Positions 16,410 through 31,857 of a DNA stretch of 64,000 nucleotides are shown piece after piece (within the stretch, counting starts at the first letter, position 1; each line of letters begins with the position of its first letter). This DNA is from Escherichia phage ph0021, in sequence record OP557970.1; one strand, written 5' to 3'. A program made the translations under genes and the position numbers. The notes below the pieces were generated by a model. The model was not told where the DNA came from, searched no databases, and saw only the letters and a list, made by a program, of their open reading frames with translations.

Positions 16410-18229
16410 TACTGGCTCATCCATTCTTTACGAAGGTCAGCATTATCTCCCATGAGCATTTCAAAAAGCTCTTTCCAATTCTCAGGAAGTTTAACAACAT
16501 CATATACTGGGTTTTGAATCATCTCACGATATTCAGATTTTTCCAAAGAGCCAAGTCCTTTAATATAACGGATGCTATGTTTAGGTAGAGCATCTTTGGC
16601 ACTCTCATATTCAGCGACTGTATAAAACCATTCTTGTTTTTTACCAATTTGAGCGATGATTACAGGAGTTTTGACAAAACGAATTCGTCCTTGCTCAAAC
16701 AATTCTGGCCAATTACTAAAAAATCCGAGCAAAGAAGGATAAATGCTTCCTAGACCATCATGGTCGGCATCAGTCATAATAGCAATATTATGATAATTTA
16801 AGTTTTCAGCCTTTTCACCGAGAACTAATCCAGTGATTGCGCAAATATCAAATAGTTCTTTGTTTTTAAGCATATCTGCATAAGACATACCCCAACTGTT
16901 GAGAACTTTACCGCGCAATGGATAACCACCGTGAAGTTCTTTATCACGAACATCAATAAGATATCCGATAGCCGAATCACCCTCAGTTAAGAATAGTGTA
17001 GTGTCAGCATCTTTACCGCAAAGATTCGCTTTAATATGTTTATGAACCTTAGCTTTAGAAGCCTTTTTAGCTGCTTTAGTTTCTGCTGCTTTTTCTGCTG
17101 CCAATTTACGGGCCAAGGCAGCTTCAATAATCGGCATTAAAATTGCTTCATTATTTAGAATAGCGCGTGAAATCTTTTTAGCATCAAGTTGAATATGACT
17201 ACGAATTTCGCCAAATGGAGAAGTCAAACGCTCTTTAGTTTGAGAATCAAATCGCATGTTTTTCATATCACGGACAAACATAACGATAGTCAAACATTCT
17301 TTGACACGTGCTTTAGTCACATCAATTTTGAACTTACGTTTGATTTGCGGAATAAGGTCTTCACAAATATCATCCATAACACAGTCAATGTGATGGCCAC
17401 CATTCTTAGTGTGAATGTTATTGACGTATGTTAATTGACGAAAACCATCCGGTGAACGACCAACCGCAATAGAACAATTTTCTTGTTCTTGAACAATAGC
17501 ATGCTCATCATATTGGCGTGCATATTTCTTAAAATTGCCCTGAACCTTTTTACCATTAAAGGTAAATTGAATATCAGGATAAACTACTGCAAGTGTCTGG
17601 AGACGATCTAGTGTAATGTCAAGATAAACTTGAGATAGCTCATTAGTTTCAAATGACATAAAATCAGGAATGAAAGTAACACGTGTTCCTTTCCATTTTC
17701 CAGGAATATCTTCCCATGATTTATTTTCCATACCATTTGAACAACGAACTACAATATTATTTTGACCGTCGCCAGTTTCACCAACAAACATCACAGAAAA
17801 AATGTTTGTCAAACTAGAACCAACACCGTTCATACCGCCAGTGACGCGTTCTTTATCATCACCGAAGTTACCACCTGCTTTTGGAATAGTCCATGCAGCA
17901 ACAGGACCAGGAATTTCTTCACCGGTAGGTGTTTTGACCATCGCTTGTGGAATACCACGACCGTTATCTTCAACTGTTACTTGATTGTTTTTAATAGTAA
18001 CATTAATTTTATTCGCGAATTTAAACTTAGTACGAATACCTTCATCTACTGAGTTATCGATAATTTCATCAATAAGCTTAACAAGACCAGGTACATACTG
18101 AACACTTTCCCATTTACCAAACAGAAAGCGCTCATGCATTTCATTAGCAGAAGAGCCAATGTACATGCCACTACGCTTTTTGATATGTTCAATATCGCTC
18201 AGAATTTTAATTTCATTCTTAATCATCAC
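16409..18229 (-). CDS. 39: DNA topoisomerase II large subunit gp39 (GyrB-like), unsplit form
   Basis: 606 aa continuous ORF with GyrB ATPase/Toprim sequence; no gene 60 interruption. Confidence 0.9.
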   Translation of the reverse strand: MMIKNEIKILSDIEHIKKRSGMYIGSSANEMHERFLFGKWESVQYVPGLVKLIDEIIDNSVDEGIRTKFKFANKINVTIKNNQVTVEDNGRGIPQAMVKTPTGEEIPGPVAAWTIPKAGGNFGDDKERVTGGMNGVGSSLTNIFSVMFVGETGDGQNNIVVRCSNGMENKSWEDIPGKWKGTRVTFIPDFMSFETNELSQVYLDITLDRLQTLAVVYPDIQFTFNGKKVQGNFKKYARQYDEHAIVQEQENCSIAVGRSPDGFRQLTYVNNIHTKNGGHHIDCVMDDICEDLIPQIKRKFKIDVTKARVKECLTIVMFVRDMKNMRFDSQTKERLTSPFGEIRSHIQLDAKKISRAILNNEAILMPIIEAALARKLAAEKAAETKAAKKASKAKVHKHIKANLCGKDADTTLFLTEGDSAIGYLIDVRDKELHGGYPLRGKVLNSWGMSYADMLKNKELFDICAITGLVLGEKAENLNYHNIAIMTDADHDGLGSIYPSLLGFFSNWPELFEQGRIRFVKTPVIIAQIGKKQEWFYTVAEYESAKDALPKHSIRYIKGLGSLEKSEYREMIQNPVYDVVKLPENWKELFEMLMGDNADLRKEWMSQ

Positions 18230-19375: not shown

Positions 19376-19473
19376 AATTTCCTCATTAATTGAACATTGG
19401 AGCGATGCGTTTCAGAAGAGTATCAGCGCACCTTTAACGAATTATCCATTTTATTCTTCAAGTTGTTTTCTGT

Positions 19474-19516
19474 ATCAGTAGTTGATATTGATATAGTACC
19501 ATAATCAACTACTGAT
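19474..19516 (-). promoter_or_regulatory. promoter-like -10/leader element flanked by 13 bp perfect inverted repeat
   Basis: ATCAGTAGTTGAT ... ATCAACTACTGAT arms around TACTAT; no GTTTAC -35. Confidence 0.4.
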
Positions 19517-28823: not shown

Positions 28824-29033
28824 TTAAATTACATGATTATTTATAATAAATTCTCGCGGAACGTTAAAATACCCGATTTTAGTTAATATAACAACATCAC
28901 CGTTAATAATTACCGGAGAATAATCTTCTGGAGCATTAAATTTCCAATGGGCTCTAATATTATATCCATCAGAACCAAATGCTCGAGTAGCCGGTCTCCC
29001 GGCTTTTTGCCACGCGTAGAAATCAAATTTCAT
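28824..29033 (-). CDS. hypothetical protein
   Basis: 69 aa ORF between 56 and soc. Confidence 0.45.
   Translation of the reverse strand: MKFDFYAWQKAGRPATRAFGSDGYNIRAHWKFNAPEDYSPVIINGDVVILTKIGYFNVPREFIINNHVI
28838..28845 (-). promoter_or_regulatory. late promoter TATAAATA
   Basis: Exact TATAAATA on minus strand about 30 nt upstream of soc ATG. Confidence 0.6.
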
Positions 29034-29224
29034 TTTGAATGCTCTATAATTAATTTTAAAGCTTCTTCACTGACAAAAATTTCGTCAGGACCTTCTATAA
29101 CTTCAACCGTACGAAGTTGATTAGTTAAGAGCTCACATACGAGCTCCTTGTTATAATCTTTAAATAGTTGGTCAATACGTTTCTTATGGGCTTTCTTAAG
29201 CTGACGCTTATTTAAACGAGCCAT
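29030..29224 (-). CDS. hypothetical protein
   Basis: 64 aa, basic. Confidence 0.45.
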   Translation of the reverse strand: MARLNKRQLKKAHKKRIDQLFKDYNKELVCELLTNQLRTVEVIEGPDEIFVSEEALKLIIEHSK

Positions 29225-29742
29225 TAATAACCTCGGTCTTGACGGGCGAAATTTTCGGCATTTTTCAGATAATAAAGTTTAAAGATTTCTTCTGCTGTAA
29301 GACCAAGACCCTGGAACATATTCAGAACGAAATGAAGAATATCAATCATTTCAAATTTAATTTCTAACTGGTCTTGTGGAGACAAATCAGTAATCAGAGT
29401 TTCACGACGTTCACCATGCTGCGACTTCCAAGGTTTCCATACAGCAGATGCGTCTTTTTCACCATTACTCATACCACCAAGAGAAGTCAGAAGTTCACGG
29501 AATTCATCATCAATATAATCTTTCTGATTGCGTAGCCAATCAACAACTTCACCGGCAGTAGCCAAGTCATCAGGATGACGATTATATTCAGGTTTATCTT
29601 TAGCTAAACGAACCTGTAAAGATTTCTGCATGTCAAGCATTACCTGTAGCGGGTCTTTTTCATCACCGAGAATATCCCAATACTCATTTTGAGCTTTATC
29701 AGCGCCTTCGATCAGTTGACTACATTCGTTGAAATGTGGCAT
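29224..29742 (-). CDS. 56: dCTPase/dUTPase gp56 (MazG-like)
   Basis: 172 aa, matches T4 gp56 length and order. Confidence 0.85.
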   Translation of the reverse strand: MPHFNECSQLIEGADKAQNEYWDILGDEKDPLQVMLDMQKSLQVRLAKDKPEYNRHPDDLATAGEVVDWLRNQKDYIDDEFRELLTSLGGMSNGEKDASAVWKPWKSQHGERRETLITDLSPQDQLEIKFEMIDILHFVLNMFQGLGLTAEEIFKLYYLKNAENFARQDRGY

Positions 29743-29743
29743 G

Positions 29744-30394
29744 TTATTTTTCCTTTCTTATGAAGTTTTCTATCATATGTCTATAGCAGATATTAGGATA
29801 ACCTGCCTTGACAGCTATTTTATTAAATTTTGTGCGCTTAGGTCTATTATTATAAACCCATAATTCATAAAGCGCATCATAACTATTCCATATTTCTCCT
29901 CGCCTAGGATTTGGTAAACCATATCGAGGTGAATTTTTACCGCTAAATCTTCCTTTTCGGGCTTTACTCATATTAGCCTTGGCTTCATCGGATATAATTT
30001 TACCTTTATGAGCTAGACGCATTTTGGCTTTAGTTTCTTCTGGGGTCTTTTTGCCTTTAATCCATGACGGCTTGCCATATCTAGGATTATTTTCACCCGA
30101 GAAAAGAACAGAGTTTTGGATTTTAAGGGTTTCTATTAATCTACTTGTTAATTTAACACCTTTATTATATCGCATTAAATTTACAGCATAATGCAATCCT
30201 CTCACATCTGGATATATTTTAGTTAATAATCTATGAGCTATAAAATGCTCACGCGCAGTTAACTCAACAAGATTGTTTTTGTCATCTGCTCCTCCTATAC
30301 ATCTAGGAATTATATGATGACGTTCTTTATATCCGCCAAGATGCCGGCATTTAGCTTTTGTAATTAAAGCCGAGTAAATTTTTTGGTAATTCAC
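29744..30394 (-). CDS. HNH homing endonuclease with NUMOD3-like repeats
   Basis: 216 aa; HHIIPRCIGG...NLVELTAREHFIAH HNH motif; two GxNxPRYG / KxKMxxAxKG repeats; GTG start after SD AAAGGA. Confidence 0.75.
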   Translation of the reverse strand: MNYQKIYSALITKAKCRHLGGYKERHHIIPRCIGGADDKNNLVELTAREHFIAHRLLTKIYPDVRGLHYAVNLMRYNKGVKLTSRLIETLKIQNSVLFSGENNPRYGKPSWIKGKKTPEETKAKMRLAHKGKIISDEAKANMSKARKGRFSGKNSPRYGLPNPRRGEIWNSYDALYELWVYNNRPKRTKFNKIAVKAGYPNICYRHMIENFIRKEK

Positions 30395-30464
30395 ATATAT
30401 CCTTTCAATTCATGGGTTAGTAGATTAATTATACAATAAATATATAAAGCAATAAGGAGGACAT

Positions 30465-30665
30465 ATGGTACAAAAATTAATGGCACTTGTTGATGCCATA
30501 AAAGGTAATAAAAAACGTATAGCTTTTACTATTTCTGCTATGGTAGGAATTTTACTCTGGAACTTTATTTTATCACCCATTGCAATTGCACATGGTATTA
30601 ATATTCCAGTAGTTACTCTTGATACATTCGTAGATTTAGCATTTGCTTTAGTTGGGTTAATTTAA
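30465..30665 (+). CDS. small hydrophobic protein (66 aa), opposite strand to surrounding operon
   Basis: ATG with strong SD AAGGAGG 6 nt upstream; two hydrophobic segments; stop abuts gene 61 stop. Confidence 0.45.
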   Translation: MVQKLMALVDAIKGNKKRIAFTISAMVGILLWNFILSPIAIAHGINIPVVTLDTFVDLAFALVGLI

Positions 30666-31690
30666 ATCTTAGCATATTTAGATAACCGCATTTTAGCCAT
30701 CAACCCCTGTGCAATATTATTTTTCATATATTCCATAATTTGTTCAGGGGTTGCACCTTCCTTTCTAATCATATCATTAACATCTTTTGATTTCCAGGGA
30801 GATTTATCCCAAAACATAACTCTTTCTCCTGCATCAACTAATTTAGTCATTCGCTTGATAGTGTCAGGATGACGAGGTTCATTATCTAAAACCCACACTC
30901 GTCTATCTTTAAATGGAACAACTTCTAGGTCTAATTGACCACCCGTAATAGCTATACCATTTTCAATAAAAAGCGAATCTATAGGTCCTTCTAGAACATA
31001 TACATCACCATCTTTAACTCGTTCGACTCCATATATTTTTGTTGCCTCAGGATAAGCTTTAATGGTGATATATTTTTGAGGAGCATCTTTCTTTAATGCA
31101 CGTCCTTGAAAAGACTCAGCTTTTCCATTAGCATTATAAATTGGAATAACAAGACGAGGCTCAGGTATTTCCTTTTTATATGTTCCCGGTGCTATGCTAT
31201 TAACTAATTTAGGCCATTCGGTTGTAAACCAAAGATATTTCCATTTATCCTTTGGAATACAACGAGCTTTTACATATTTTATAATTGGATGGTCTTCCGC
31301 CAGTTTATCTAATCTAACACATGACGGAAGAGATTTAATTATTTTCTTCTCAGGTTGTTTAGGAAGTTCTTTAGGTTTTTCTACTGGACGACTTTTACCT
31401 TTTTCTTTTCTTATTTCAAAGATATACTCACGATATAAATCAGGTTCAAACTCCTTTAAATATATTCCGATTGGTGCATGATAGTTACAGTTATAACAAT
31501 GAATATTTCCTTCATTATTATCGCCATAATACCATCCACGGGCTTTATTTTGGTCGGTTTTTGAATCTCCACAAACAGGGCATCTAAACCGCAATTTAAA
31601 AGTTGAACTATTATTTACTTGTGTGAATTTAGGTAAATGAGCTAATGCACGGTATGCAAACTCATTATCAATCCAAGGTATTGATGACAT
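30662..31690 (-). CDS. 61: DNA primase gp61
   Basis: 342 aa, zinc-ribbon CPVCG...CYNC and Toprim region; length matches T4 gp61. Confidence 0.9.
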   Translation of the reverse strand: MSSIPWIDNEFAYRALAHLPKFTQVNNSSTFKLRFRCPVCGDSKTDQNKARGWYYGDNNEGNIHCYNCNYHAPIGIYLKEFEPDLYREYIFEIRKEKGKSRPVEKPKELPKQPEKKIIKSLPSCVRLDKLAEDHPIIKYVKARCIPKDKWKYLWFTTEWPKLVNSIAPGTYKKEIPEPRLVIPIYNANGKAESFQGRALKKDAPQKYITIKAYPEATKIYGVERVKDGDVYVLEGPIDSLFIENGIAITGGQLDLEVVPFKDRRVWVLDNEPRHPDTIKRMTKLVDAGERVMFWDKSPWKSKDVNDMIRKEGATPEQIMEYMKNNIAQGLMAKMRLSKYAKI

Positions 31691-31692
31691 TT

Positions 31693-31857
31693 TTACTCTT
31701 CTTTTTCTTTAGATTCCTCTTTTTTCTTTTTAGGAATCTGTTCAGGACCTTTATTTACTACAGCGCCTGACGTTGTTCCAGTAGAGATATTTTCAGGATT
31801 ACCACCTGAATCTCCAGCTACCATATCTTCTTTAATAAATTCTTTATATGTTTTCAT
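31693..31857 (-). CDS. small hypothetical protein (61.1 position)
   Basis: About 54 aa, Lys/Glu-rich C-terminus; read by hand. Confidence 0.4.
   Translation of the reverse strand: MKTYKEFIKEDMVAGDSGGNPENISTGTTSGAVVNKGPEQIPKKKKEESKEKEE

Follow-up and report, generated by a model that had tools for sequence, protein, structure and literature searches.

A predicted Mob-family homing endonuclease gene and a conserved small open reading frame at the dam-less 56-61 locus of Escherichia phage ph0021

The free-standing HNH homing endonucleases of T-even phages include MobE, MobA and MobD of T4. The Mob enzymes nick one strand of DNA and are preferentially inherited, and many T4 endonuclease genes, including several seg and mob genes, are promoterless cassettes (PMC2988022). 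Between genes 56 (dCTPase/dUTPase) and 61 (DNA primase), T4 carries dam. We analyzed the corresponding interval (positions 29,743 to 30,665) of a 64,000-nucleotide (nt) stretch of Escherichia phage ph0021 (OP557970.1), the whole of which is called the window below. Here the interval holds two open reading frames (ORFs) on opposite strands, one encoding 216 amino acids (aa) and the other, the micro-ORF, encoding 66 aa. We think it probable, with considerable confidence, that these are separate elements and that the dam-less T-even backbone shows here three features unrelated to each other: a homing endonuclease gene, a resident micro-ORF and an independent dam polymorphism. Nothing at the locus is outside known kinds.

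The window matches positions 72488-136487 of OR584013.1 (Pseudomonas phage PsgM02F) in reverse complement with 1 mismatch in 64 kb. The phage is a Tequatrovirus, and its 56-61 locus is 96-98% identical to those of many Escherichia coli, Shigella and Yersinia phages. An initial annotation of the window, made from the sequence alone, had described the 216-aa protein as an HNH endonuclease with NUMOD3-like repeats, and the family matches agree with that description. The protein matches Pfam NUMOD3 in two stretches (E-value 8e-7; 29.3 bits versus the cut-off of 20.4), PHROG 655 "homing endonuclease" at 1.3e-59 and PADLOC HEase at 3.4e-6, and the ORF is annotated as "homing endonuclease" in OR584013.1. 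Its N-terminus, (M)NYQKIY, agrees with those of Mob proteins. Over the first 130 aa, identity is 49% to the MobE-like protein that the same genome encodes in its nrdA-nrdB interval; the HNH block HHIIPRCIGGADDKNNLVELTAREHFIAH can be aligned between the two proteins, while their C-terminal halves are unrelated. The nearest T4 relatives detected by tblastn are of the MobE type (~45% identity over 165 aa) and the MobD type (~35% over the full length). The architecture, an N-terminal HNH nuclease domain followed by C-terminal NUMOD3 repeats, is that predicted for a free-standing Mob-family HNH endonuclease with its own DNA-binding module, and we regard the protein as a new, uncharacterised member of this family.

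The 56-61 interval was aligned across five genomes, and both junctions of the HNH gene were inspected. The gene is placed exactly between the ribosome-binding site (RBS) of gene 56 (..TTGAAAGGA) and the gene 56 ATG, as a 652-nt insert between GAAAGGA and this ATG; the site is empty in SA21RB, T4, JD18 and others. At the left junction, the former leader and RBS of gene 56 now stand ahead of the GTG start of the HNH gene, and this leader is the same as the gene 56 leader of the HNH-less SA21RB and T4. At the right junction, the last HNH codons (AGA AAG GAA AAA TAA) and one C precede the gene 56 ATG and rebuild an RBS, and the insert as a whole is flanked by a 7-bp direct repeat GAAAGGA (minus strand). 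Upstream of HNH/56, the window has a MotA box followed, after 11 nt, by TATAAT, and T4 and Jiaodavirus have the same motifs in the corresponding place. This element corresponds to the T4 promoter P(M)16.53 ahead of gene 56/69, for which X01416.1 (Macdonald and Mosig) annotates a mot box and a -10 element, and by its motifs it would drive HNH-56. The HNH gene thus looks like a promoterless cassette riding the gene 56 transcript: it would take over the old gene 56 RBS, give gene 56 another within its own final codons, and probably be transcribed from the conserved gene 56 middle promoter. It should be noted that the insertion separates this promoter from the 5' end of gene 56 by 652 bp, and that T4 oriA has been mapped in the 5' end of gene 56 (record position 16763).

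The proposal that the endonuclease is mobile, also made in the initial annotation, is supported by copies at the same site in other genera, with flanks that are far less conserved. The HNH gene is found there in Jiaodavirus (Klebsiella phage 15882-6-2, 92.6% aa identity), and a homologue with 79% aa identity occupies the same site in Dhakavirus. Between the window and the HNH-containing Jiaodavirus phage, nucleotide identity is 90% in the HNH gene (with stretches of 96-100%) compared to 64% in gene 61 and 74% in gene 56, suggesting that the HNH gene recently spread to this site horizontally. The tract of high identity runs from the HNH RBS to ~34 nt into gene 56, the first 34 nt of which are 100% identical. 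A similar signature is seen within the genus: among Tequatrovirus genomes with the HNH gene, nt 1-32 of gene 56 are invariant, whereas the rest of the gene differs by 6-9%. Compared to SA21RB, a close relative without the HNH gene, 8 of the 28 differences in gene 56 fall in nt 1-33 and the other 20 in the remaining 486 nt. The 5' changes linked to the HNH gene are mostly synonymous.

Intronless homing with co-conversion would produce such a pattern if the target overlapped the RBS, the ATG and the first codons of gene 56; the first ~33 nt of gene 56 are the probable co-conversion tract and part of the disrupted target site. In a mixed infection, the enzyme would nick or cut HNH-less genomes in the conserved stretch at ~-15 to +35 around the gene 56 start, recombinational repair from an HNH-containing genome would then introduce the HNH gene along with the ~33 nt at the start of gene 56, and these 5' changes and the insertion itself would protect the carrier from its own enzyme. 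Loss of the gene may also have left traces. The HNH-less Kha5h (Tequatrovirus) and KPV15 (Jiaodavirus) have the linked gene 56 allele, along with a TAAC/TAAT spacer that stems from the stop codon of the HNH gene, and the simplest reading of these "scar" alleles is that the HNH gene was lost after invasion, by recombination between the GAAAGGA repeats. Such alleles were searched for with short blastn queries, in which partial matches to HNH-containing and Jiaodavirus genomes mix into the identity bands, and we claim their existence and not their frequency. The native, HNH-less Jiaodavirus JD18 already has AAC, AGT and ATC in its gene 56 start, which hints that the cassette may have come from Jiaodavirus.

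Alternatively, the HNH gene could be a fixed, immobile remnant, either inactive or domesticated, e.g., as a nuclease acting against competing phages without homing. The GTG start and the sub-threshold score against the Pfam HNH profile are in line with this explanation; some HNH-less genomes have the linked and presumably resistant allele, so that susceptible targets may be limited, and for several of the mob genes of T4 no activity has been demonstrated (PMC2988022, Table 1). Nevertheless, the ORF is intact and at least 90% identical in ~55 records, the MobE-like protein shares the conserved catalytic block HHIIPR...DDKNNLVELTAREHFIAH, and the identity across genera stands well above that of the flanks, pointing to recent spread. 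We consider an immobile remnant unlikely.

The second feature, the micro-ORF, is present at 30465-30665 (+) as a hydrophobic ORF on the strand opposite to that of its neighbours, as initially described. It is convergent with gene 61, and the two stop codons overlap by 4 nt. The initial annotation had taken it for the only convincing plus-strand gene in the block of minus-strand genes; another coding sequence on this strand, of 35 aa, is annotated in OR584013.1 between motB and cef (window positions 19397-19504, +), inside the same block. The near-perfect Shine-Dalgarno (SD) sequence ascribed to the micro-ORF is likewise there as AAGGAGG, although the spacing of 6 nt to the ATG given for it is that of T4, and the window has 4 nt.

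T4 itself has the micro-ORF at positions 17738-17938 (+) of NC_000866, 95% identical to that of the window and unannotated in both NC_000866 and AF158101. In some other records, Kha5h and RB51 among them, it carries the names RB32ORF030w, RB69ORF029w or "Dam.1". A tblastn search with the micro-ORF of the window found 692 records, 685 of them at at least 80% coverage, and a query of the Jiaodavirus form added 165 records, including those of Moonvirus and Gelderlandvirus phages, for a total of ~850 phage records. Wherever the flanks were examined, the micro-ORF adjoins the 3' end of the primase gene in convergent orientation, and elsewhere primase is often the gene named under the match. Outside T-even phages, a whole-library phmmer search returned no homologues, only family members and three spurious long repetitive proteins; a single-protein scan of viral contigs added only 2 loci. 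One further copy is peculiar: protein P0035 from a Logan assembly is a 61-aa version of the micro-ORF product whose A, T, S, P and H residues are exchanged in the way expected if each C were read as T, and it probably derives from bisulfite-type reads that were assembled as normal DNA.

Substitutions in the micro-ORF bear the marks of a coding sequence. Between genera, the proportion of nonsynonymous differences (pN) is ~0.33 and that of synonymous differences (pS) is 0.6-0.8, with a nonsynonymous to synonymous rate ratio (dN/dS) of 0.2-0.4; within Tequatrovirus, dN/dS is 0.14-0.24. The differences are distributed over the first, second and third codon positions as ~32/12/38, i.e., second positions change three times less than the others. 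These patterns fit a hydrophobic protein under purifying selection, and the frame stays open across genera at ~50% aa identity. Gaprivervirus genomes have two tandem paralogues of the micro-ORF (VR25, locus L011, 1795-2201); the second type, which ends in ..GIPS, is broken in TH40. In Dhakavirus ESCO10, a paralogue of the ..GIPS type adjoins the primase gene and appears frameshifted or shortened.

It could be argued that the 66-aa ORF is not a gene and that the 200-nt interval is conserved as the 3' untranslated region or terminator of gene 61 together with promoter sequences, the open frame being incidental. A minus-strand terminator-like hairpin followed by a T run (-8.2 kcal/mol, z -2.5 by folding) does lie inside the ORF and has been marked as a terminator by other annotators, the T4 reference annotation has no gene here, and searches of Pfam, NCBIfam and PADLOC gave no family match. 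However, the hairpin is found only in Tequatrovirus, being absent from the same place in Mosigvirus, Gaprivervirus and Jiaodavirus, and therefore it cannot explain the conservation of the micro-ORF, which extends to those genera as a protein. A role of the interval as a gene 61 terminator only was rejected on the same grounds. The constraint on codon positions, the conservation of the SD sequence, the ATG and a late-promoter motif, and the tandem paralogue in Gaprivervirus also speak against a non-coding interval, and we rate this explanation as very unlikely.

The expression signals upstream of the micro-ORF resemble those of late genes. The SD sequence is conserved in all relatives, and NATAAATA is found in five genera, 12-22 nt before the ATG, with a second copy 33 nt before the ATG in Jiaodavirus. 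A T4 late gene is recognized by a promoter of the TATAAATA type that lies ~10 bp ahead of the start site and has no -35 element. Of the 50 T4 late promoters listed in PMC2988020, 9 have an A at -13, the commonest variant. On both strands of the window, (T/A)ATAAATA (WATAAATA) occurs 6 times versus 25 +/- 4.8 expected from shuffles, and the late-promoter motif appears to be avoided in the early-gene region. Of the other copies, one matches an annotated T4-type late promoter (SA21RB locus, X01416) and two are in the plus-strand late-gene block. Judging by these motifs, the micro-ORF is most likely expressed late, from the NATAAATA promoter; in T4, the late plus-strand transcript would start ~6-8 nt 3' of GATAAATA, near 17.72 kb of NC_000866.

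The AlphaFold model of the micro-ORF product has helices at residues 2-12, 16-42 and 52-63, with a mean predicted local distance difference test (pLDDT) score of 79. Hydropathy and the net charge of the N-terminal part (+4/+5) fit a membrane protein; the C-terminal part has a charge of -2. The modelled product is most likely a single-pass inner-membrane protein with a basic cytoplasmic N-terminus, a transmembrane (TM) helix at ~16-42 and, outside, a short C-terminal helix that is acidic and amphipathic. A fold search with the model returned relatives and noise only, and the literature search found no relevant paper on the function or expression of the micro-ORF. With low confidence, we would guess at an envelope- or lysis-related late function. 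UniProt labels one family member "Holin", and the product is a small protein with at least one predicted TM domain (hydropathy and helix 16-42 of the model), as holins are. We rejected this assignment: there is no charged C-terminal tail (..LAFALVGLI is hydrophobic), the neighbours encode primase and dCTPase, and the holin gene t is elsewhere in the genome. A more elaborate proposal is that the micro-ORF is a genuine late T4 gene with an inner-membrane role in lysis timing, exclusion or envelope integrity, whose late transcript, antisense to the primase mRNA, helps to shut down gene 61; we find this combination improbable.

The third feature is the absence of dam. The initial annotation correctly placed T4 dam between genes 56 and 61 and saw no Dam-sized or methyltransferase-like ORF here. 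A tblastn search with T4 Dam against the window and the whole PsgM02F genome found no homologue (best E-value 1.1), and no methyltransferase is annotated in OR584013.1. Among relatives, the locus takes several forms: 56-ORF-61 in SA21RB, with neither HNH gene nor dam; 56-dam-ORF-61 in T4; 56-HNH-ORF-61 in the window and in ~30 records at at least 80% coverage; 56-HNH-dam-ORF-61 in ELT1; and 56-HNH-dam-(186-aa ORF)-ORF-61 in IME537. All four combinations of presence and absence of the HNH gene and dam exist, which shows that the two vary independently, and the HNH junctions are identical with or without dam. T4-type dam (at least 90% aa identity) was found in 182 phage records versus 502 with the Tequatrovirus-type micro-ORF, and dam is absent here from the Mosigvirus, Gaprivervirus and Jiaodavirus loci examined. 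Therefore, the dam-less state is the majority state and is probably the older one; dam is an accessory insertion in part of the genus and not ancestral content removed by the endonuclease.

These results leave next to no chance for the initial interpretation that a single mobile cassette, made up of the HNH gene and the micro-ORF as its passenger, replaced an ancestral dam: the two ORFs adjoin and the dam gene that T4 has here is missing, but the four-way pattern of presence and absence already refutes it, the micro-ORF abuts gene 61 in every configuration found, including the HNH-less genomes of SA21RB, T4, Kha5h, Mosigvirus, Gaprivervirus and Jiaodavirus, the HNH gene stands alongside dam in ELT1 and IME537, the tract of high identity with the Klebsiella phage is confined to the HNH gene and the first 34 nt of gene 56 (identity across the micro-ORF is 28-56%), and the 45-nt spacer that leads to the micro-ORF from the HNH gene in the window is the same 45 nt that leads to it from gene 56 in SA21RB. 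The same HNH gene and micro-ORF occur in this arrangement in dozens of T-even genomes. The micro-ORF is thus a resident Tevenvirinae gene without connection to the endonuclease.

The dam gene has associations of its own. A Dam homologue with 60% identity is encoded in a Klebsiella phage at a different locus. Immediately upstream of dam, an ORF of 186-190 aa is found at two different loci, in IME537 (L002, 2721-3281) and in Klebsiella phage Lion_ER11 (L023, 1635-2207). The two proteins are 44% identical (E-value 2e-44), with weak matches to the DpnII restriction endonuclease (Pfam, E-value 0.0045) and to PADLOC REase_II (9e-5). By these similarities, the ORF and dam may form a mobile two-gene module of a restriction-enzyme-like protein and Dam; T4 has dam alone.

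Several points weigh against our interpretation of the locus as an active homing endonuclease gene beside a late-expressed resident gene. The match of the 216-aa protein to Pfam HNH (E-value 0.0019) is under the gathering score, and no solved structure is related to this protein by sequence. The position of the target site follows only from where polymorphisms cluster, and the cluster itself could mark the recombination junction of a cassette received from a Jiaodavirus-like donor, since JD18 shares AAC, AGT and ATC. Likewise, the alleles of Kha5h and KPV15 could be the ancestral allele into which the gene first inserted, or in which it arose, and not deletions. The late promoter of the micro-ORF deviates from TATAAATA at -13 in every genus and may be weak, and the functional role of the micro-ORF is a guess. 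In the literature searched, we found no cleavage, transcript or protein data for either the endonuclease or the micro-ORF. We nonetheless prefer three unrelated features, each with a distribution of its own.

The features of the locus are listed in Table 1. Rfam gave no family match in positions 29000-31800. Gene 56 is strongly diverged from T4 gene 56 (dS ~1.0, dN 0.20), whereas the adjoining gene 61 is nearly identical to that of T4 (dS 0.107). Small ORFs of the soc.1/soc.2 type occupy the place of T4 segF in the window. Gene 56 is a mosaic hot spot and has an endonuclease site on either side, that of segF in T4 and that of the HNH gene here. OR584013.1 is labelled as a phage of Pseudomonas coronafaciens obtained from coffee leaves, but the genome is that of a typical Tequatrovirus, and the host label looks doubtful.

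Table 1. Features of the 56-61 locus in window coordinates.
Feature	Position	Strand	Basis
Gene 56 (dCTPase/dUTPase)	29224..29742	-	ORF; Pfam dUTPase_2; OR584013.1 annotation nucleoside triphosphate pyrophosphohydrolase
Gene 56 first ~33 nt, ATG CCA CAT TTC AAC GAA TGT AGT CAA CTG ATC	29710..29742	-	HNH-linked allele
Predicted Mob-family HNH homing endonuclease gene, 216 aa, GTG start	29744..30394	-	ORF and family matches
New gene 56 RBS within the last HNH codons	29749..29757	-	Sequence, junction alignments
Right copy of direct repeat GAAAGGA	29751-29757	-	Junction alignments
Left copy of direct repeat GAAAGGA (original gene 56 RBS)	30400..30406	-	Leader alignment
Middle-promoter-like element: MotA box TTGCTTTA, 11 nt, TATAAT	30428..30452	-	Motif only
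Late-promoter-like motif AATAAATA, 22 nt before micro-ORF ATG	30435..30442	+	Motif
SD sequence AAGGAGG of micro-ORF, 4 nt before ATG	30454..30460	+	Sequence; kept in all relatives
Predicted 66-aa small membrane-protein gene (micro-ORF), phrog_2024	30465..30665	+	ORF, homologues
Terminator-like hairpin, then T run, 3' of gene 61, inside 5' part of micro-ORF	30480..30499	-	Folding
Gene 61 (DNA primase)	30662..31690	-	ORF, Pfam, annotation

For annotation, the locus is best read as a dam-less backbone with genes for an uncharacterised Mob-family endonuclease and for a small membrane protein of the conserved hypothetical kind, and not as a dam-replacing cassette. In ~850 relatives there is a conserved gene, subject to purifying selection and preceded by a late-promoter motif, that the T4 reference records leave out. 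The endonuclease gives a natural series of naive, occupied and emptied sites across phage genera with different hosts, and its insertion at the translation start of an essential gene, beside the mapped oriA promoter, is convenient for studies of intronless homing and gene loss.

Each of the three features can be set beside a described T-even system. For the endonuclease, these are T4 MobE, MobA and MobD. The N-terminal HNH domain is 45-49% identical to those of the MobE type, and the likeness to MobD (~35%) extends over the full length. Also shared with these systems are the intergenic, promoterless, same-strand insertion adjoining a nucleotide-metabolism gene, the presence/absence polymorphism, and the co-conversion of flanking sequence that the polymorphisms suggest. 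Unlike MobE, the protein has a NUMOD3 C-terminal region, with no similarity past residue ~130, and the gene is inserted at the RBS/ATG junction of gene 56 and not at nrdA/nrdB; T4 itself is without this HNH gene. Another T4 free-standing endonuclease gene adjoining gene 56 is segF, although it lies at the opposite (3') end and its product belongs to the unrelated GIY-YIG nuclease family. SegF reportedly cleaves gene 56 of T2 (Belle et al. 2002). It is among the active T4 free-standing endonucleases (PMC2988022). The micro-ORF is a full-length member of phrog_2024, a family of conserved hypothetical small T-even proteins (E-value 3.9e-31), from which it shows no difference. As for Dam, a GATC N6-adenine methyltransferase, T4 uses the same locus for its gene, whereas the phage described here has no homologue of it in the window or in the genome.

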